Assembly: GCA_017395275.1 (NCBI GenBank)
Contig: JAFPVN010000164.1
Coordinates: 1 to 37,868 of the forward strand
DNA from: Candidatus Methanomethylophilaceae archaeon
GTDB lineage: Archaea; Thermoplasmatota; Thermoplasmata; Methanomassiliicoccales; Methanomethylophilaceae
Length of the DNA: 37,868 bases
Reading direction: 5' to 3'
Each line of letters begins with the position of its first letter. The stretch's first letter is position 1. Positions 8,751 through 32,358 of this stretch are shown here, piece by piece. Position numbers and translations under genes: made by a program. The notes under the pieces are model-generated. The model was not told where the DNA came from, did not search any database, and saw only the letters and a list, made by a program, of their open reading frames with translations.

Positions 8751-11700
8751 TCACTCGCCTCCCACGGGGTAGTCGAGGCAGGCATCGATCTCTGCCTGGA
8801 TCTGGATGTTCTTGAATCCCTTCTGCTCCATAGCTCCGGACGGGCATGCTGCGACACAGCATCCGCATCCCTTACAGAGACCTGCGTTGACGTTGGACTT
8901 CAGTTTACCGTCCTTGGAGACGATGGTGATTGCCTTGTACTCGCAGCATCCCTCGCACACTCCGCATCCGTCGCAGTAGTCCTCGTTGACTGAAGCGACG
9001 ATACCCTCGGAGGTGAGGAACTTCTTGGAGATGATGGTCAGGGCCCTGGAGGCTGCTCCGGATCCCTGTGCGATACACTCGTCCATGTGCTTGGGCCAGT
9101 GGGCGAGTCCTGCTACGTAGACACCCTCGGTCGCGAAGTCGACGGGCCTGAGCTTCTGGTGAGCCTCGAAGTAGAATCCGTCCTTGGAGATCGGGACCTT
9201 CACCATCTTGGCGAGCTCCTCCTTCTCCTCGCGTGCGGGTGCGATACCGTTGCTCAGAACGACACAGTCAACGGGGACGGAGACGTCGGCGCCGAGAGTG
9301 AGGTCGAACGCGGTAACGGTGTTGCCGTCGTATGCGGGCAGGGGTGCCTCCTCGTCGTACCTGAGGAACCTGACTCCGACCTCGGATGCCTTCCTGTACA
9401 TCTCCTCGCGGAATCCGTAGGTCCTGATGTCCTTGTGGAAGATGGTGACGTTGGCGGTGGGGTCTGCGAGCTTGATCTGGATCGCGTTCCTCAGAGCGGT
9501 GGTACAGCAGACACGTGAGCAGTATCCGACGGACTCGTTCCTGGAACCGACGCACTGGATGAATGCGACGTTCTTTTTGTTGAACTTGCCGTCCGCGATC
9601 GCCTGCTCGCACTCGAGTCCGGTCATGACCTTCGCGTCAGAGCCGTAGTTGTACTCGGTGGGCTTGTATGCGGGTGCACCGACTGCGAAGATGACTGCTC
9701 CGACAGGCTCGTCGGTTCCGTCCTCGAGCTGGAGGTTGAAGTTTCCGACGAATCCGGGGATGTCCTTGACCTTTGCGTTGAGGTGGACCTTGATCAGGTT
9801 GTTGGAGTTGACCTTGTCGATGAGGCCCTTGACGAACTCGAGGGTGTCGACACCGTTCTCCTTGTGCCTGAAGTTGAGCGCCTGTCCTCCCAGCTGTCCC
9901 TCCCTCTCGACGAGGTGGACCTCGAATCCCTGTGCGGCGATGTCGAGTGCGGTGGTCATACCGGTGATACCTCCACCGATGACTGCTGCCTTCTGGGTGA
10001 CGGGGATCTTTGCTCCCTCGAGAGGCTCGAGGAGGCATGCCTTTGCGATTGCCATCCTGACGAGGTCCTTTGCCTTCTTGGTTGCGGCTTCGGGCTCGTG
10101 CATGTGGATCCAGGAACACTGGTCACGGATGTTGGCCATGTTGAAGAGGTACTGGTTGAGTCCTCCCTCACGGCATGCGATCCTGAACAGGGGCTCGTGG
10201 GTCCTGGGTGTGCATGATGCGACGACTACACGGTTGAGGTCGTGCTCCTTGATTGCGGCGGAGATGGCCTGGAGGGTGTCCTGTGCGCATGCGTACATCG
10301 TCTTGGTCGCGTAGACCACGTGCGGCAGGGTGCCGGCGTATGCTGCAACGGAGGGGACGTCTACTGTGGCACCGATGTTGATACCGCACTCGCAGACCCA
10401 GACACCCACACGGGGCTCCTTGCCTGCAACGTCCTTCTCTGCGGGGTACTGCTTGGGGGCGCAGGGCTCGAAGTTCTCATCGACGATGTATGCTCCGGCC
10501 TTTGCGGATGCTCCCGAAGACTCGGCGACGGTGGTCGGGATGTCCTTGGGTGCGGAGAATGCTCCGGACACGAGGATACCGGGCCTGGTGGTCTCGAGGG
10601 GCTTGAATACCGAGGTCTCACAGAATCCGTACTCGTTGAGTCCGATTCCGAGGACTTTGGCGAGTTCCTCAGCTCCCTCCGGCGGGTTGAGTCCGATGGA
10701 GAGAACGACGAGGTCGTACTCTGCGGAAGTTCCGTTTCCGTCCTTGTCGGTGTAGTTGATGGTGAGCTTCTTGGTCTCGGGGTCCTCCTCGACGTTGGAG
10801 ACACGGGCTCCCCTGTGCATGATGATTCCGTACTGGCCCTGGGCCCTCTTGATGTAGGCCTCGAACTCCTTTCCGTAGGACCTGATGTCCATGAAGAAGA
10901 TGTCCTCCTGGACCTGTGCGTGCTCCTTGGTGATGATTGCCTGCTTGGTCGCGTACATACAGCAGACGGACGAGCAGTACTTCTTCCAGTTCTTCTTCTC
11001 GGACCTGGATCCGCAGCACTGGATGAATGCGATCTTCTGGGGTGCCTCACCGTTGGACGGGCACTTGATGTGTCCGTGGTCAGGACCGGATGCGCACATC
11101 ATCCTCTCGTACTCCATGGAGGTGACGACGTTGTCGTATCTGCCGTATCCGTACTCGGTCGCATAGCCTGCGTCCCAGAGCTGGAATCCGACGGCGGCGA
11201 TGATGGATCCTACCTCGAGGACCTCTTCCTCCTCCTTGTCGGCGTAGTTGATTGCTCCCTTCTTACAGGTCTTCTCACAGATTCCGCACTTGCCGTTGAG
11301 AATCATCTTACAGTAGTTGGGGTCGATGAGAGCGACCCTGGGAACTGCCTGTGCGTGAGGGATGTAAATTGCCTTCCTGGTGGTGAGTCCGTACTCGAAC
11401 TGGTCGGGGATGTTCTTGGTGGGACACTTAGCGACACAGTCACCGCAGCCGGTACACTCTTTGAGCTTGACGTACCTGGGCTTCTTCTTGACCGTGACCT
11501 TAAAGTCTCCAGCCTCTCCGTCGACCTTAACAACCTCTGAGTAGGACATGACCGTGATGTTGGGGTGACCCGCACAGTCTGCCATCTTAGGGGAGAGGAT
11601 ACAAGCGGAACAGTCATTCGTAGGGAAAGTCTTGTCGAGACGGCACATCTTTCCACCGATTGTGGGGTCTTTCTCCACAAGGTAGACATGGATATCCCTG

Positions 11701-11768
11701 TCTGCAAGATCCAACGAAGCCTGGATACCTGCGATTCCTCCACCGATAACCAATGCTGATTTAGTCAT
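8751..11768 (-). CDS. hdrA: heterodisulfide reductase subunit A, long tandem-module form
   Basis: 1005 aa with two FAD-binding loops (VIGGGIAGIQASLDLA at aa 7 and VIGGGITGMTTALDIA at aa 596). Also present are FPTNDCSACILSPK, an inserted 2x[4Fe-4S] ferredoxin (CTGCGDCVAKCP, CGICEKTC), two copies of the IQC.GSR...CS..CC motif, and a C-terminal ferredoxin (CDGCGVCEGCC, CKGCGCCVAACP). A strong GGAGGT lies upstream. Confidence 0.95.
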   Translation of the reverse strand: MTKSALVIGGGIAGIQASLDLADRDIHVYLVEKDPTIGGKMCRLDKTFPTNDCSACILSPKMADCAGHPNITVMSYSEVVKVDGEAGDFKVTVKKKPRYVKLKECTGCGDCVAKCPTKNIPDQFEYGLTTRKAIYIPHAQAVPRVALIDPNYCKMILNGKCGICEKTCKKGAINYADKEEEEVLEVGSIIAAVGFQLWDAGYATEYGYGRYDNVVTSMEYERMMCASGPDHGHIKCPSNGEAPQKIAFIQCCGSRSEKKNWKKYCSSVCCMYATKQAIITKEHAQVQEDIFFMDIRSYGKEFEAYIKRAQGQYGIIMHRGARVSNVEEDPETKKLTINYTDKDGNGTSAEYDLVVLSIGLNPPEGAEELAKVLGIGLNEYGFCETSVFKPLETTRPGILVSGAFSAPKDIPTTVAESSGASAKAGAYIVDENFEPCAPKQYPAEKDVAGKEPRVGVWVCECGINIGATVDVPSVAAYAGTLPHVVYATKTMYACAQDTLQAISAAIKEHDLNRVVVASCTPRTHEPLFRIACREGGLNQYLFNMANIRDQCSWIHMHEPEAATKKAKDLVRMAIAKACLLEPLEGAKIPVTQKAAVIGGGITGMTTALDIAAQGFEVHLVEREGQLGGQALNFRHKENGVDTLEFVKGLIDKVNSNNLIKVHLNAKVKDIPGFVGNFNLQLEDGTDEPVGAVIFAVGAPAYKPTEYNYGSDAKVMTGLECEQAIADGKFNKKNVAFIQCVGSRNESVGYCSRVCCTTALRNAIQIKLADPTANVTIFHKDIRTYGFREEMYRKASEVGVRFLRYDEEAPLPAYDGNTVTAFDLTLGADVSVPVDCVVLSNGIAPAREEKEELAKMVKVPISKDGFYFEAHQKLRPVDFATEGVYVAGLAHWPKHMDECIAQGSGAASRALTIISKKFLTSEGIVASVNEDYCDGCGVCEGCCEYKAITIVSKDGKLKSNVNAGLCKGCGCCVAACPSGAMEQKGFKNIQIQAEIDACLDYPVGGE

Positions 11769-12108
11769 TCTTTTACCTCCTTCATATAATAATATGTTGG
11801 AACGGTTCGGAGGATGGCGTGATATATTAAAACCATTTCTACATCACGTTTATATAAGATGGGGTCGTTTATTATACTCTCAATTCTGATTTTCGTTCGT
11901 TTGACCGACAGTTTTTTTAGGTGACTTTAAAAACAGACAGGCCAGACATACGATTAAGTAGTGTTAAATGTATTTATTGTTTGAGATAATGCTACCACAC
12001 ATATTGTAATATTCGCAGATATATTTCGTAATTAACCGAAATAATTTTCCCGTCGCATCGGAACGTTTGACACACCGTGTTTATAACCTCTCCTGACGAT
12101 ATGCACAT
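11769..12108. promoter_or_regulatory. AT-rich divergent promoter region (hdrA operon / zinc-finger gene)
   Basis: This 340-nt spacer is the longest in the window and is markedly AT-rich. TATA-like boxes include TTTATATAA (11849-11857) and GTTTATAA (12079-12086), the latter about 25 nt before ATG 12109. Confidence 0.4.
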
Positions 12109-12627
12109 ATGGACCCGATCTACCGCACAGTGATCGCAATCAGCCTCGTCATCACGGCGGCAGCGGCGGCGATCGCGCTGTACCGCCTGTACAGATCCAC
12201 CATGGATGAAGAGAGGGCACTGGGGAACAAGAAGTCCGCTTACACCACCGCCGACTACCGTGCAGATCAGAGGTGCGAGATATGCTTCGACGACATCGGC
12301 GACGAACCCGTATCACAGTGCGGCAAGTGCGGGAAGACGTTCCATCTCTCATGCGCCGAACCCACCGGGGAATGCCCGTACTGCGGCACCCGCTTCGAGG
12401 ACTTCCTGCCACCGAGACTGGCCCGTCACGTGACATGTCCCAGATGCGGAAATGCGATGAACGGGAACATATGCTCCTGCGGCACCGTGATACCCGATGC
12501 GGACGGCTCGTTCGTATGCAGGTGCGGGGAAAGGGTATCGGCGGGAGAGTGGATGTGCCGCAGGTGCGGGAGGACGTTCAGGACCGAGATGTCCTCCGTC
12601 AAGAAACAGTATATACCCAACGAATGA
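12109..12627 (+). CDS. membrane-anchored multi-zinc-finger protein (C4HC3 RING/PHD-like plus two zinc ribbons)
   Basis: 172 aa with an N-terminal TM helix (VIAISLVITAAAAAIALY) followed by basic residues. Ligand pattern is C56-x2-C-x11-C-x2-C-x4-H-x2-C-x6-C-x2-C92. CPRCG..CSCG and CRCG..CRRCG ribbons follow. Confidence 0.75.
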   Translation: MDPIYRTVIAISLVITAAAAAIALYRLYRSTMDEERALGNKKSAYTTADYRADQRCEICFDDIGDEPVSQCGKCGKTFHLSCAEPTGECPYCGTRFEDFLPPRLARHVTCPRCGNAMNGNICSCGTVIPDADGSFVCRCGERVSAGEWMCRRCGRTFRTEMSSVKKQYIPNE

Positions 12628-12637
12628 TGGTGGTCCG

Positions 12638-12952
12638 ATGGTCGTCAAATCCAAGAGGGGCAGGCGCAGATACATAGCGTTCACGGTCAGCGAGGGACTC
12701 ACCAAGGAGTCCCTGGCCGGCAAACTGGCCGCCTTCGCCGGCGAGAATCCCCCCAAGGTCATCCAATGCGCCGAGGGATGGTGCATCCTGAGGTGTTCCC
12801 CGCAGGAGAGGGACCGCACCGTGGAATTGATGTCCGCCGCGGATCCGGAATCCAAGTCCCTCCGCACATCTGGTACTTTGATTACCCTCAGGCGCAGATA
12901 CCCCCGTCTGATGGAGACCAGACCTCCCTCCCGCAGGAAGGGGCGTGCGTAA
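12638..12952 (+). CDS. rnp2: RNase P protein component 2 (Pop5/Rpp14 family)
   Basis: ORF 12497..12952 trimmed to ATG 12638 (MVVKSKRGRRRYIAFTV...). The RRYI.F motif fits, as does the position directly upstream of psmA seen in the conserved archaeal superoperon. Confidence 0.8.
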   Translation: MVVKSKRGRRRYIAFTVSEGLTKESLAGKLAAFAGENPPKVIQCAEGWCILRCSPQERDRTVELMSAADPESKSLRTSGTLITLRRRYPRLMETRPPSRRKGRA

Positions 12953-13001
12953 ACTTTCTTATAATAGGTTATCATACGCGCACCCGTAAGGAGTACGAAC
13001 T

Positions 13002-13712
13002 ATGCAACCAGGACAAATGGCTTATGACAGGGGAATCACAGTTTTCTCCCCTGACGGAAGACTCTTCCAGGTAGAGTATGCCCGCGAAGCGGTCAAGAAG
13101 GGAACCACCACGATCGGACTCAAGTTCAAGGACGGTGTCATCCTCATCGTTGACAAGCGCGTCTCGAGCAAGCTCGTGGAGCCCAAGTCCATCGAGAAGA
13201 TCTACGACATCGACAAGTACATCGGATGCGCAACGTCCGGTCTGGTCGCCGATGCGAGGATCCTCGTCGACGAGGCGAGAAAGAACGCTCAGATCCACAA
13301 GGTCACCTACAACGAGAACATCACCGTCGAGGCGCTCGTCAAGAAGATCTGCGACCTCAAACAGAACTATACCCAGTACGGCGGGGCACGCCCCTTCGGT
13401 ACCGCCCTCCTGATGGCGGGAGTCGACGACCTCGGCTGCCACCTCTTCGAGACGGACCCCTCGGGAGCCCTCAGCGCATACAAGGCGGACAGCATCGGTT
13501 CCGGCCGTCCCGCTGTCCTCGACGTGTTCGAGAAGGAGTTCACCGACGGCATGTCCTACGAGGACGCCATGCTCCTCGGACTCAAGGCACTCAAGGCGGC
13601 GATCGAGGACACCCCCTCCGCGGCTACCGTGGAGATAGGAGTGGTCAAGATCGACGAACCCTTCAGAAGACTCTCCGAAGAGGAAGTCGCGAAGTTCATC
13701 GAAAAGCTCTGA
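13002..13712 (+). CDS. psmA: proteasome subunit alpha
   Basis: 236 aa. [31 protein letters not shown] is the canonical alpha-subunit N-terminus. AAGGAG lies 8 nt upstream. Confidence 0.97.
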
Positions 13713-13717
13713 GTAAC

Positions 13718-14413
13718 ATGGTCAATCTGGACGATGCGATAGTTGCCCGTCTCGAGACGTACGGAGAGACGTTCGAGATCCTCCTGGACCCTGCCGCGAT
13801 GAACCTCATCAAGGCAGGCAAGGAGATCGACCTGCTGGAATACCTGGCGGTGGAGGATGTGTTCAACAACGCCAGGAAGGGCACCCGCCCCACCGAGGAG
13901 ATGATCGCCAAGGCGTTCGGCACCTCGGATATCAAGGAGATAGCGCAGAAGATAATCTCCAAGGGAGAGGTGCAGATCACCGCGGAGCAGAGGAAGGAGA
14001 TGCTCCAGGCGAAGAAGAAGCAGATCGTGGCATACATCGCGGCCAACGCCATCAACCCCCAGACCAAACTCCCCCATCCCCCGCTCAGGATAGAGCTGGC
14101 ACTGGATGAGGCGAAGTTCCACACCGACCCCTTCAAGCCCGTGGACAAGCAGGTCGAGGAGGCCATGCACCTCCTCAGGCCGATCCTGCCCATCAGGTTC
14201 GAGAAGACCAAGGTGGCGGTGCGCCTGAAGGGCGACGACTACGGCAGATGCTACGACGACCTTATCCACTTCGGTATCGTGGAGAAGGAGGAGTGGCAGG
14301 CCGACGGCTCGTGGATAGGTCTCATGGAGATACCCGCCGGATTGATCACGGAACTGACCAGCAAGCTGAACAGCAAGACCAAGGGCAACGCCGCGGTCAA
14401 GGCTATCCAGTAA
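13718..14413 (+). CDS. SBDS/Sdo1 family ribosome maturation protein
   Basis: ORF 13226..14413 trimmed to ATG 13718 ([25 protein letters not shown]). This is an SBDS-like N-terminal domain in the conserved position after psmA. Confidence 0.9.
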
Positions 14414-30091: not shown

Positions 30092-30592
30092 TCACTGCAC
30101 GATGACCATCTGCGCCTTCTCTGGAATCTCGGAATTATCGAATACGGCGAACTCCCCGCGCAGAGGGTCTATGACCACGGCGAATCCCATCCCCCTGCCG
30201 AACACGGAATGCTGGGTGCTCACATCGGTATCGGACATGAAGCATCCGCATCCCAGATGGGAATGGTACCACCCTACGATGTGCTCCCCCTCGGACATCC
30301 CGTCCACGCCGTCGATCAGCTCGGACATGCCCTCGGGATCGAACCTCACACCGTCGGAATCCGCGATCCTGTCGGACGTTATCACGCGTTCCACCACCGC
30401 GTACTCCCCGGAATCATCGCGGTAGGCCCTCCCTATCATCAGGCCCATGGTCTCCGAATCGCGCATGGCATCGTCGTCCGCGGCCTGTATCATGGTCTCC
30501 GCGGCGGATTCGGCGATGAAGAGACTGACCCCTCTGACGGACCTCCTGCGGAATTCAGGTTCCGCATCCTCGGAAGAGATTACCCGGACCAT
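30092..30592 (-). CDS. JAB1/MPN/Mov34 (JAMM) metalloprotease, Rpn11-like
   Basis: 166 aa with an intact JAMM motif: E47 (SETMG) and H110-S-H112-x7-S120-x2-D123 (GWYHSHLGCGCFMSDTD). Its ATG lies 1 nt after the E2 stop. Confidence 0.85.
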   Translation of the reverse strand: MVRVISSEDAEPEFRRRSVRGVSLFIAESAAETMIQAADDDAMRDSETMGLMIGRAYRDDSGEYAVVERVITSDRIADSDGVRFDPEGMSELIDGVDGMSEGEHIVGWYHSHLGCGCFMSDTDVSTQHSVFGRGMGFAVVIDPLRGEFAVFDNSEIPEKAQMVIVQ

Positions 30593-30593
30593 G

Positions 30594-31073
30594 TCAATCC
30601 GACCCGTACTCCACCCTGCCGCGGAACTTCGAATCGTGGTCGGCGAAGAACCTTGCCGCCTCCATGCACGATTCCGTACCGAACGGGCTCATGGGATTGG
30701 GATTGGAGACCAGGAAGCTCAGGCTCTTGAGGAAGGCCGGCAGGCGGGTGTTGAACTCCCATTCGTTCAGCATCTTGGTGCAGACGTAACCCCCATCGGA
30801 GGGGTCCATGATGTTGGGATGGAAGATCTGGGTCTTCCACCTGACCTCCGGTTTCTTGAAGCCGTAGTCCTCGGTCAGCACTATATAGAAATCGTGCTCC
30901 GTGATGATCCTGTCGGCGGTCTCGTGGGCCACCACGTTGCTCATGTGCATGTCGATGCGTATCGGGAACTCGGCCTTCTCGGCATCGAACTCGAACTCGG
31001 AACCGAGGTACTCCTCGCAGTCCTTCAGCTCCCTGCCGATCCTTCTCAGCAGAACCGCCTTGGGGAGCCCCAT
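30594..31073 (-). CDS. ubiquitin-conjugating enzyme E2 (UBC fold)
   Basis: 159 aa, starting at the internal ATG 31071-31073 of ORF 30594..31721. It has an E2-like helix 1 (LLRRIGRELKDC), YGFKKPEVRW, the FHPNI (HPN) motif, Cys98 in GGYVCTKMLNEW, and NPNPMSP. It aligns by eye with UbcH5-type E2s. Confidence 0.85.
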   Translation of the reverse strand: MGLPKAVLLRRIGRELKDCEEYLGSEFEFDAEKAEFPIRIDMHMSNVVAHETADRIITEHDFYIVLTEDYGFKKPEVRWKTQIFHPNIMDPSDGGYVCTKMLNEWEFNTRLPAFLKSLSFLVSNPNPMSPFGTESCMEAARFFADHDSKFRGRVEYGSD

Positions 31074-31315
31074 CGGCACCCGCCTTCCGGATCCGGGATC
31101 AGCTCCAGGACATCCTCGTTGATGAGACCGATCTCCGATGCCGACTCCGAACCGCGCAGCAGCCTCTTCCCCTTCTTGAGGACGTAGGCGCCCTCCTTCA
31201 GCTTCCAGAACTCCGCTGCGGATTCGATGATGTCGCTGACGCTGTCGGACGGTTCGACCTCCACCCTGATGGTGGAGCCGTTCGTCAGGTTCTTCACGGT
31301 TATCTTCAATGACAT
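31046..31315 (-). CDS. ubiquitin-like beta-grasp protein, pro-form (GG plus 10-aa tail)
   Basis: 89 aa. Compare MSLKITVKNLTNGSTIRVEVEPSDSVSDII with ubiquitin [26 protein letters not shown]. Gly78-Gly79 (31079-31084) is followed by CRWGSPRRFC. GGAGGA lies upstream, and the ATG is 3 nt after the E1 stop. Confidence 0.8.
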   Translation of the reverse strand: MSLKITVKNLTNGSTIRVEVEPSDSVSDIIESAAEFWKLKEGAYVLKKGKRLLRGSESASEIGLINEDVLELIPDPEGGCRWGSPRRFC

Positions 31316-31318
31316 TCC

Positions 31319-32113
31319 TTATTCCTCCGTGTGATTGGGACACTGAGGGTCCCTGTCCAAATCCAATGTGAACACCGTTCCGGCGGTGCCGTCGTAATAC
31401 GTCACGCCTTCCACAGTTAAATCCTGTCTGTCCGAGGCTATCTTCATCGTCTCCCTGACCTCCATCGCGGCTATCACGGCCGTGGTGGTTATGTCGGATG
31501 CGGTATGGGGGACGAACACGGACGAGCTGCCAGTGCACGTGAACCTCCTCTCCAGCGCCTTGGCATGGGAACGGTTGGATGCGCACTGGAGGCACGGACC
31601 TCCCGGGAGGACGACCTGGAGCTTGCCCATCATGCCGTCCGTCGCACCGTCCACGTACGGTATCCCGAGACCGCAGGCGGTGGCGTTCAGATGCATCCTG
31701 GCGAGGATGTTGTCCAGGCATCCGACGATGATGTCATAGTTCCAGGACTCCATGTCTTGTATCCTGCCGACGATCGGACGTATCTCCGCATCGGGATCCA
31801 GTTCGGATGCCCTCGATGCGACGATCTCCGACTTCATGCCCGAATGTACGTCAGAATCCCTGAAGAAGAGGCACCTGCTCAGATTGGAGAGGACCACATC
31901 GTCCATGTCGATGACGTCTATGTGCCTGAAACCGGAGAGGACCAGGTCCTTCACGACCTCGTTCCCCAGCGCCCCAGCGCCGGCGACCAGCACCCTGCAT
32001 GAGGCTATCCCGTCCATGTCGACCCATTCGATGCGTCTCTGACGGTCGTGCCTGTCGCGGTCCGATGCGCCCGCGGTTACGGTGTCCATGGAACGGAATC
32101 CCGATATGCGCAT
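31319..32113 (-). CDS. E1-like (ThiF/MoeB/UBA family) adenylyltransferase
   Basis: ORF 31319..32233 trimmed to ATG 32111-32113, which is equidistant from the shared TATA. An alternative ATG lies at 32089. Motifs are VLVAGAGALGNEVVKDL, IDMDDVVLSNLSR, CLDNILARMHLN, GPCLQC and CPNH. Confidence 0.85.
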   Translation of the reverse strand: MRISGFRSMDTVTAGASDRDRHDRQRRIEWVDMDGIASCRVLVAGAGALGNEVVKDLVLSGFRHIDVIDMDDVVLSNLSRCLFFRDSDVHSGMKSEIVASRASELDPDAEIRPIVGRIQDMESWNYDIIVGCLDNILARMHLNATACGLGIPYVDGATDGMMGKLQVVLPGGPCLQCASNRSHAKALERRFTCTGSSSVFVPHTASDITTTAVIAAMEVRETMKIASDRQDLTVEGVTYYDGTAGTVFTLDLDRDPQCPNHTEE

Positions 32114-32163: not shown

Positions 32164-32358
32164 ATGGCCCTGAAACTGCCGGAACACTCCCATTGCGCCT
32201 ACTGCGGGGACCCCATACCGTTCGACAGGGCATACTGCAGCGAGGAATGCCTCGAGAAGCACAAGAGGGAGACGCGCAGGACTAACATCAGGGACATAGC
32301 GTTCTACGTCACCGTCGGAGTGGCCCTCTGCGTGCTCGCGTTCAGGTTCATGTTCTGA
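32164..32358 (+). CDS. small Zn-ribbon protein with C-terminal TM helix (DUF2116-like)
   Basis: ORF 31999..32358 trimmed to ATG 32164 (MALKLPEHSHCAYCGDPIPFDRAYCSEEC...). The Zn ribbon is C-x2-C-x9-C-x3-C, followed by a basic linker and a hydrophobic tail IAFYVTVGVALCVLAF. Length is 64 aa. Confidence 0.65.
   Translation: MALKLPEHSHCAYCGDPIPFDRAYCSEECLEKHKRETRRTNIRDIAFYVTVGVALCVLAFRFMF

Follow-up and report, generated by a model that had tools for sequence, protein, structure and literature searches.

A candidate membrane-anchored RING E3, encoded apart from the cassette, for the E1-Ubl-E2-JAB system of a Methanomethylophilaceae archaeon

We describe a candidate ubiquitin ligase (E3) encoded in a 37,868-nucleotide (nt) stretch of DNA from a Candidatus Methanomethylophilaceae archaeon (order Methanomassiliicoccales; assembly GCA_017395275.1, contig JAFPVN010000164.1, positions 1 to 37,868), the whole of which is referred to here as the window. 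The minus strand of the window carries, at 30092-32089, a cassette of genes for an activating enzyme (E1), a ubiquitin-like protein (Ubl), a conjugating enzyme (E2) and a JAB protease. Some 18 kb away, on the opposite strand, lies a gene for a small zinc-finger protein (ZnF), and we consider it reasonably probable that this protein is the membrane-anchored RING E3 of the E1-Ubl-E2-JAB system, encoded apart from the cassette. The evidence consists of a zinc-ligand motif and its conservation, a predicted RING fold, a conserved gene position, and the shared presence and absence of ZnF and E2 among relatives, the last of these being the strongest. The coordinates of all features are given in Table 1.

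Results

ZnF and E2 are present and absent together within the order

The distribution of the two genes was compared in 69 genomes of the order, comprising a 61-genome order sample and eight genomes of the family taken from a sample of the class. Both genes are present in 56 of these genomes and neither in nine, and an intact ZnF gene without an E2 gene was found in none; one further genome has a ZnF pseudogene and no E2 that we could find, and three have E2 only. In the order sample, E2 and Ubl were each found in the same 52 of the 61 genomes, and none of the nine genomes that lack E2 has an intact copy of ZnF. (Note that a search with a single sequence found the ZnF protein in 49 of the 61 genomes; one of these matches, in genome G022, was false, and genome G060 was added by a profile search. 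The G022 match, with an E-value of 9.3e-4 and confined to aa (amino acids) 87-165, in a 1007-aa frame, was rejected as another Cys-rich protein because the syntenic locus in that genome is without ZnF and the family profile finds none there.)

In eight of the nine E2-less genomes the syntenic locus was read, and in each of them the HdrA and pop5 genes are adjacent, with a gap of 400-570 bp between them from which ZnF is gone. The ninth genome (G053) has a ZnF pseudogene (L052:1500-2220 (+)) with one TGA and three TAG stops, in which the first Cys of the finger has become Phe, the fourth ligand has become Tyr and a CPYC motif has become CSYC. The TAG codons could in principle be read as pyrrolysine; the TGA codon and the lost ligands argue for decay. 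The three genomes with E2 only are 76-89% complete, and in them the locus of the proteasome alpha subunit gene (psmA) is unassembled or the contig ends at psmA. The eight extra genomes of the family are all concordant (seven with both genes and one with neither), and so are all eight genomes of a genus that is polymorphic for the two genes (five with both and three with neither).

In a tree of psmA together with the first 300 residues of HdrA (41 taxa, FastTree) the losses fall at four distinct points, in each case next to a lineage that has retained both genes, with supports of 0.87-0.999. In the lineage of genome G036 the whole cassette is gone from between the SIS-domain gene and the DUF2116 gene that flank it, and in genome G042 there is nothing beside the SIS-domain gene. 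In two of the three E2-less genomes of the polymorphic genus (G118 and G014, in which the locus was read) the genes for E1-like, Ubl-like and JAB-like proteins remain and E2 alone is missing; the ZnF gene is gone too, and the Ubl-like protein is without the terminal Gly-Gly. An E2 profile had no match in five of these E2-less genomes, the same profile having matched 94 of the 201 genomes of the class sample. As for control genes, DUF2116 was kept in all five E2-less genomes tested, and TctA, an unrelated accessory gene, is present in two of the loss lineages and absent from the other two. The original prediction, which was made from the window alone and linked ZnF to the cassette as a speculation, is supported by this phyletic comparison: no relative in the order that lacks E2 keeps an intact ZnF gene, and four E2-less lineages are marked by loss of the gene or by a pseudogene.

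(Note that in the polymorphic genus the JAB-like protein is without the HxH metal motif both in the E2-bearing genome G188 and in the E2-less genomes. The loci concerned are L097:2085-3471 (-), L098:3621-4989 (+) and L087:3480-3881 (+); in the E2-less genomes the Ubl-like ORF is without the C-terminal PDPEGG motif. The E1-Ubl-JAB remnant in this genus looks like a system that is decaying or has been repurposed.)

Beyond the order, the class sample includes 175 genomes of other families, 74 of which have E2. By a hand tally, 39 of the genomes of other families have a strong match to ZnF (E up to about 8e-19) in a frame shorter than 520 aa, and 36 of these 39 have E2, a comparison that is confounded by relatedness. 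In other families of the class this type of finger also forms the C-terminal end of proteins about 1590 aa long (L064:6685-11466 (+) and L065:4065-8798 (-)), where a C4HC3 finger that matches Prok-RING_1 at 27.4 bits follows a stretch with weak matches to TPR/ANAPC3-like domains. In a library of 1.84 billion proteins the family profile matched 43 representatives at E<=1e-30, 275 at E<=1e-10 and 4596 at E<=1e-3, many of the last of which we take to be zinc-ribbon repeats.

The finger of ZnF is predicted to adopt a RING-type fold

The open reading frame (ORF) and the Cys and His positions of ZnF were derived again by script. The finger ligands are Cys 56, 59, 71 and 74, His 79 and Cys 82, 89 and 92, which form the pairs C56/C59, C71/C74, H79/C82 and C89/C92 with the spacing C-x2-C-x11-C-x2-C-x4-H-x2-C-x6-C-x2-C (nt 12274-12384); the eight-ligand C4HC3 pattern and its coordinates thus stand as originally described, as do two further Cys-based ribbons at Cys 110/113/122/124 and 137/139/150/153. 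In an alignment of 42 homologues, which are 23-70% identical to the window protein, C56, C59, C71, H79, C82, C89, P90, C92 and the eight ribbon Cys show no variation and C74 almost none; because it is conserved across this alignment, the ligand pattern is not a product of chance. The second ligand pair is C-x-C in most relatives, as against C-x2-C in the window protein, and the folded finger domain spans about aa 54-104. (In two species of one genus the fourth ligand is Thr instead of Cys, in the motif RCGTGK, at L032:3020-3205 (+) and L047:2743-3486 (-); one of the zinc sites in that genus may have three ligands only.) The part of the protein that holds the ribbons has weak Pfam zinc-ribbon/DZR matches, with DZR or Zn_Ribbon found in 20-22 of the 42 members, and relatives in other families have two or more extra ribbons. 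None of 26 close homologues returned by a word-indexed search carries a Pfam RING annotation, and the sources name the proteins of the family 'hypothetical protein' or 'uncharacterized Zn-finger protein'.

Against Pfam, the window protein scores below the gathering cut-offs of zf-RING_2 (21.1 bits, cut-off 27.3), Prok-RING_1 (PF14446; 17.8 bits, cut-off 29.1) and PHD (16.4 bits, E 0.0096, cut-off 24), and has further weak matches to zf-HC5HC2H and C1. Across the family, at E-values up to 0.01, the commonest match is to zf-RING_2 (40 of the 42 members), with Prok-RING_1 matched by 17 members (the best at E 2.5e-8), PHD by two and zf_UBZ, weakly, by two. The zf-RING_2 cut-off of 27.3 is exceeded, at 28.2 bits, by an orthologue-like protein of 173 aa encoded in another family of the class. 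RINGv, the RING-CH model, is absent both from the best 25 of the 33 Pfam families that match the window protein with E-values of 10 or less and from the 25 families most often matched across the 42 members, and no NCBIfam model scores above its cut-off for ZnF. When the family profile was compared with the sequences of the PDB, the 20 best matches were all RING-H2 E3s; the best was RNF165 (E 3.9e-6), followed by Arkadia, AMFR/gp78 (3.4e-5), RLIM and ZNRF3 (9.7e-5). The RING of Hrd1/synoviolin matched at about 5e-3, and the first PHD protein (WSTF) only at E 0.045. In the hidden Markov model (HMM) alignment to RNF165, a Lys occupies the column of the canonical His-4 and a Cys two residues before C3 stands in for it. 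Because this Cys just upstream of C3 replaces His-4, the finger has the order C4HC3 instead of the canonical C3H2C3 with His at ligand 4; C4HC3 is typical of prokaryotic RINGs according to a 2024 review (PMC11354881).

AlphaFold2, run with the family alignment, gave a pLDDT of 90.8 for the full-length protein and of 82.8 for the finger alone (aa 46-104). When both models were compared with the PDB by Foldseek, the best matches listed were almost all RING or U-box E3 domains. Those of the full-length model include TRIM21 (8a58_C; root-mean-square deviation (rmsd) 2.6 over 55 columns, prob 0.99) and Rad18 (2y43_B; rmsd 2.1 over 53), and those listed for the finger alone (to rank 49) are all RING, RING-like or U-box domains and have a TMq of 0.48-0.68 and, for most rows, an rmsd of 1.7-2.8, at E-values of only 0.008-0.1. 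Taken overall, the superpositions on RING and U-box domains have rmsd values of 1.4-2.8 over 45-57 residues, with TMq up to 0.68. ZZ domains are among the listed matches at similar Z, and no entry titled as a PHD finger is found among the 50 structural-match rows listed; note that PHD and RING share the cross-brace. Residues 54-104 are thus predicted to form a RING/U-box-type cross-brace and not serial zinc ribbons.

The original prediction had read the finger as RING-CH or PHD-like and had likened the protein to the eukaryotic MARCH and Doa10 ligases. Its cross-brace agrees with the predicted fold, which superposes on RING and U-box domains rather than on sequential ribbons, and its RING assignment agrees with the HMM searches (zf-RING_2 in 40 and Prok-RING_1 in 17 of the 42). 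The same searches do not support PHD (two of the 42) or RING-CH (RINGv is not listed); ZnF has the C4HC3 order in common with RING-CH fingers, but one predicted transmembrane segment instead of a polytopic domain. By the tests run, the subtype is RING-H2/Prok-RING_1-like, and ZnF is not a RING-CH or PHD member. Because RINGv is absent from the listed families, we keep the comparison with MARCH and Doa10 as an analogy of architecture and not as a statement of membership.

Two of the positions at which an E2 contact would be expected are occupied accordingly. The residue at I58, between the first two Cys, is always I, L or M in the family, and the Pro that follows ligand 7 (P90) is invariant; these are positions that contact the E2 in known RING E3s.

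Consistent with a membrane anchor, 38 of the 42 family members have a hydrophobic 19-mer (mean Kyte-Doolittle value of 1.6 or more) on the N-terminal side of the finger. The AlphaFold2 model has a helix over aa 3-40 and no other long helix, so the single N-terminal transmembrane helix that was originally noted is borne out by both the hydrophobic segment and the model. Lys and Arg are usually commoner on the C-terminal side of the segment, and the zinc domains are therefore predicted, by the positive-inside rule, to be cytoplasmic, held by a single anchor.

The cassette looks functional and without an E3 of its own

The order E1-Ubl-E2-JAB is identical in 28 of 28 loci of relatives, and the series closes with a convergent SIS-domain gene. 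In the E2, both the HPN motif and catalytic Cys98 are invariant in 24 of 24 sequences, and the Ubl ends in PDPEGG in 27 of 28 orthologues and in PDPQGG in the remaining one, followed by tails of 0-10 aa. A profile of the RING family had no match in any of the 28 cassette loci. With the E2 motif and Cys and the Ubl Gly-Gly kept, and with no RING match in these loci, the system looks functional and appears to have no E3 of its own; the absence of a RING gene from the cassette had been remarked on at the outset for the window, and it extends to all 28 loci. E1 and JAB have weak NCBIfam matches, below cut-off, to the SAMP-activating E1 and desampylase, and no NCBIfam match is listed for E2 or the Ubl.

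In the window, the E2 gene begins within the sequence for the 10-aa Ubl tail (31046-31075). Tails of 9-10 aa are found only in the genus of the window; other orthologues have 0-2 aa, and one has six. In genome G028, whose RING gene is intact, the Ubl gene is divided between two frames (L089:2260-2513 (+)), owing either to a frameshift or to faulty assembly. (What had been taken for an in-frame stop in the G028 ZnF gene was rejected, as it is the natural stop.) The DUF2116 ORF, which is divergent from E1, keeps its syntenic place next to E1 in 14 of the 15 cassette loci that were inspected from the family of the window; it was considered as a further component of the system and rejected, being kept in the five E2-less genomes tested.

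Discussion

Evidence against the proposed role and alternative explanations

Several findings weigh against the reading of ZnF as the E3 of the E1-Ubl-E2-JAB system. With respect to the phyletic pattern, there are only four independent loss events; the contig of G053 ends 255 bp after the SIS-domain gene that flanks the expected cassette, and therefore the loss of the cassette in that genome is not proven; and the control gene TctA is missing in two of the loss lineages, which therefore differ from their relatives in more than the Ubl system. Outside the order, three of the 39 genomes in the hand tally have no E2 match (G194, 86% complete; G124, 92%; G208, 72%), and one of the genomes that encode the finger within a protein of about 1590 aa (G079) has no E2 that was found, and therefore this type of finger is not strictly tied to E2. 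With respect to the finger itself, only six residues separate ligands 6 and 7, and the helix Trp that contacts the E2 in RING-H2 fingers is missing. Across the family the last Cys is followed by G, N, K, Q, D, E or H, so that there is no conserved Arg or Lys 'linchpin', and one genus that keeps E2 has Thr at the fourth RING ligand. Moreover, the cross-brace RING fold is a prediction only.

One alternative is that ZnF belongs to the Ubl pathway in a non-catalytic capacity, either as a membrane receptor or adaptor that binds the Ubl or its conjugates through the ribbons, or as a dedicated substrate, or an anchor by which E2 or the proteasome is recruited to the membrane. Co-variation with E2 shows functional linkage and not catalysis, and the missing Trp and basic linchpin, together with the zinc ligand lost in an E2-bearing genus, also count in favor of this alternative. 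Small zinc ribbons are, in addition, a common protein-binding module, and two of the 42 members weakly match zf_UBZ. However, two E2-contact positions are kept (an aliphatic residue behind the first Cys is conserved, and the Pro that follows ligand 7 is invariant), no other E3 is found in any of the 28 cassette loci, and in one lineage the loss of ZnF tracks E2 specifically, with the E1-like, Ubl-like and JAB-like genes staying behind. We therefore regard a non-catalytic role as possible though rather unlikely.

It is more doubtful still that ZnF, as a membrane protein with a zinc finger, has nothing to do with the Ubl system and is, for example, a partner in FtsZ-based division or in RNA or protein turnover, and that its shared absence with E2 is a coincidence of lineage loss. 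Such a role would fit the conserved neighbors of the gene, which are pop5, psmA and, in most other families, FtsZ, rather than the cassette, and it would fit the large proteins that carry the same finger in genomes in which no E2 was found; the small number of independent events (four) and the absence of TctA from two of the loss lineages leave room for coincidence. Against it, concordance is perfect wherever both loci can be assessed, including all eight genomes of the polymorphic genus, and the only other E2-less lineage has a pseudogene. DUF2116 and TctA do not follow the pattern in the two loss lineages within the family, and the fold and profile matches are to RING domains of E3s and not to nucleic-acid-binding fingers.

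Finally, a PHD-type or other cross-brace module that is not an E3 (PHD, ZZ or FYVE-like) and that reads a peptide or lipid at the membrane is very improbable: C4HC3 with x4 between ligands 4 and 5 is the PHD pattern, which this finger shares, and weak matches to PHD (E 0.0096), zf-HC5HC2H and C1 and ZZ domains at similar Z point the same way, but PHD is matched by two members against 40 for zf-RING_2, the 20 best PDB sequence matches are RING E3s with WSTF appearing first at E 0.045, the Trp before ligand 7 that is typical of PHD fingers is absent, and no PHD-titled entry stands among the 50 structural rows listed (which says only that none is listed).

How a membrane-anchored RING E3 would act

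If ZnF is the E3 of the system, the JAB protease would trim the Ubl to its C-terminal Gly-Gly, and the E1 would adenylate the Ubl and hand it to the catalytic Cys of the E2. The RING of ZnF would then bind the charged E2 at the membrane, with I58 and P90 as the contact positions, while the zinc ribbons would bind the substrate or the Ubl. The Ubl would in this way be transferred to proteins near the membrane, possibly marking them for the proteasome that is encoded beside ZnF. E2 binding, ligase activity, the nature of the substrates, the topology and any link to the proteasome are what we infer from the observations above. In a fuller version of this idea, which we think unlikely to hold in its entirety, ZnF would be the archaeal equivalent, in minimal form, of the membrane-bound RING ligases of eukaryotes: tethered to the cytoplasmic membrane, it would work with a bona fide E2 to mark proteins near the membrane for the proteasome. 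Because the gene lies directly upstream of ftsZ and psmA across the class, Ubl-dependent proteolysis could, on this fuller reading, also be coupled to FtsZ-based division, or else to quality control of membrane proteins. E1-E2-E3 ubiquitylation with a membrane E3 would then extend to a euryarchaeal lineage far from Asgard and Aigarchaeota.

Comparison with known systems

The closest parallel is srfp, the RING-H2 small RING finger protein of the Caldiarchaeum subterraneum ubiquitylation operon, the activity of which was reconstituted in vitro; its C3 and H4 ligands are out of register, an extra Cys may coordinate zinc, and the aliphatic, Trp and basic positions discussed above correspond in it to I30, W58 and R69, of which W58 and R69 were shown to matter (Hennell James et al. 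2017, PMC5654768). Like srfp, ZnF is an archaeal RING-type finger with a displaced zinc ligand, and its proposed partners are of the same kinds: an E1 of the ThiF type, an E2 of the UQ_con type, a JAB/Rpn11 protease and a Ubl that is made with residues beyond its Gly-Gly. Unlike srfp, which is encoded inside its operon, ZnF has its gene on the opposite strand from the cassette and 18 kb away from it; it has C4HC3 ligands, two extra zinc ribbons and an N-terminal membrane helix (we found no mention of a membrane anchor on srfp in the accessible part of PMC5654768), and it is without the equivalents of W58 and R69. 

Prokaryotic RING fingers were reportedly surveyed by Burroughs, Iyer and Aravind in 2011. 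One such family, Prok-RING_1, is linked by gene neighborhood to Ubl, E1, E2 and JAB genes. ZnF shares its C4HC3 ligand order, 17 of the 42 members of the ZnF family match the model, and the nearest named clusters of the protein atlas are Prok-RING_1 proteins, some of them with zinc ribbons, in clusters that are bacterial and short. The window protein differs in falling below the cut-off of the model; its membrane anchor, its fixed place beside psmA and its separation from the E1 and E2 genes are not known as features of that family, and its link to E2 is phyletic and not positional. With the eukaryotic membrane RING E3s (Hrd1/synoviolin, gp78/AMFR, ZNRF3 and MARCH/Doa10) ZnF has in common a membrane anchor joined to a RING that is, by prediction, cytoplasmic, but it has one helix instead of a polytopic domain, and nothing outside the RING points to orthology. 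The SAMP/UbaA/desampylase systems of Haloferax have a ThiF-type E1, a beta-grasp Ubl with Gly-Gly and a JAB protease and are not known to have an E2 or E3. The window cassette resembles them in its E1, its Gly-Gly Ubl and its JAB protease, and differs from them in having a canonical E2 with HPN and Cys and a RING protein that tracks this E2 and not E1 or JAB.

Ubiquitylation in archaea has been discussed mainly for Asgard archaea, and reconstitution of an archaeal E1/E2/RING system is described for one uncultured aigarchaeon only (PMC5654768). Here, an E1-Ubl-E2-JAB cassette is conserved throughout an order of Thermoplasmata and is found besides in many other families of the class (94 of the 201 sampled genomes), and the ZnF gene is a specific candidate for the E3 that the cassette is without; a membrane anchor on a candidate archaeal E3 is not reported in those parts of the literature that were searched. 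If the proposal is correct, it would offer both a simple system for learning what E2-dependent ubiquitin-like tagging does in an archaeon and a handle on whether membrane-bound RING ligases predate eukaryotes. (In the literature searched we found no description of the ZnF family or of the Ubl system of this order; the search did not cover the 2011 survey of prokaryotic RINGs or the figures of PMC5654768, so a prior mention is possible.)

Genomic neighborhood of the ZnF gene

ZnF adjoins HdrA divergently in 32 loci from seven families of the order, and in nearly all of these it lies upstream of pop5-psmA-SBDS-Rrp4 (pop5 is present in 30 of the 32); in the family of the window it abuts pop5. The gene order after psmA is SBDS, Rrp4, Rrp41, Rrp42 and prefoldin beta. 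The start of the pop5-like ORF at 12638 is 10 nt beyond the ZnF stop, and that of psmA at 13002 is 374 nt beyond it; the original prediction had given 11 nt, which needs correcting, and about 375 nt, which agrees. It had also named the downstream gene pop5. The window ORF itself has no match in Pfam, NCBIfam or the PDB, and RNase_P_Rpp14/Pop5 (PF01900) is matched by five of 12 syntenic orthologues, one of them at 31.8 bits against a cut-off of 23, so that the ORF is probably Pop5/Rpp14. As for ZnF heading a proteasome/exosome superoperon, its first place in the cluster is confirmed as a statement on position and not on co-transcription with pop5 and psmA.

Table 1. Features of the window discussed in the text, with strand and the evidence used.
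Feature	Position	Strand	Evidence or remark
TTTATAA, TATA-box-like element	12080..12086	+	23-29 nt 5' of the ATG; read from sequence
Candidate-E3 gene (ZnF)	12109..12627	+	ATG-start ORF, 172 aa; membrane-anchored RING-plus-double-zinc-ribbon protein
Hydrophobic segment, aa 7-25 (TVIAISLVITAAAAAIALY), predicted single transmembrane anchor	12127..12183	+	Kyte-Doolittle mean 2.27
C4HC3 RING-like finger, aa 56-92	12274..12384	+	ligand conservation, structural matches, profile matches
Zinc ribbon 1, C110-x2-C113-x8-C122-x-C124	12436..12480	+	4 Cys invariant, n=42
Zinc ribbon 2, C137-x-C139-x10-C150-x2-C153	12517..12567	+	4 Cys invariant, n=42
Downstream gene, probably RNase P subunit Pop5/Rpp14	12638..12952	+	synteny and orthologue matches
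Proteasome alpha subunit gene (psmA)	13002..13712	+	Pfam Proteasome E 2.1e-61, and Proteasome_A_N
JAB/MPN metalloprotease, predicted Ubl-processing/deconjugating	30092..30592	-	Pfam JAB E 2.7e-11; HSH...S..D motif in translation
E2-like ubiquitin-conjugating enzyme	30594..31073	-	Pfam UQ_con E 1.3e-11
Ubiquitin-like protein, ends IPDPEGG + 10-aa tail	31046..31315	-	TUG-UBL1 23.3 bits, ubiquitin E 8.5e-4
E1-like ThiF-family adenylyltransferase	31319..32089	-	Pfam ThiF E 2.3e-44; start Met at 32089 chosen
DUF2116 'probable treble clef' ORF, 64 aa + hydrophobic tail	32164..32358	+	48.9 bits; divergent from E1

Families of the order other than that of the window have an ftsZ gene (Pfam Tubulin E 3e-47, FtsZ_C) positioned after the RING gene and before pop5/psmA (L024:3569-4738 (+)). 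The same arrangement is seen in L021-L036, L044, L047 and L067, which include a genome of another order-level lineage of the class. The family of the window has only a distant FtsZ-like gene, of about 35% identity, in frames of 234-270 aa.

The TTTATAA element is located in an AT-richer spacer between ZnF and the divergent HdrA gene (the GC fraction is 0.498 in 11001-12000, as against about 0.58-0.60 in the flanks), and suggests that ZnF may have its own promoter and a short or absent leader.

Part of the interval 11800-13800 of the window is contained in 20 public runs. In four rumen or gut metatranscriptome runs, from four studies, the contigs cover psmA only, from about 12972-13001 onward; ZnF and pop5 are not covered by these contigs, which hold no evidence on the expression of ZnF. 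The contigs of three studies (X3, X4 and X5) begin no more than 30 nt upstream of the psmA start and are without pop5, which hints weakly at a separate transcript start for psmA or at a much greater abundance of psmA than of the genes upstream of it.

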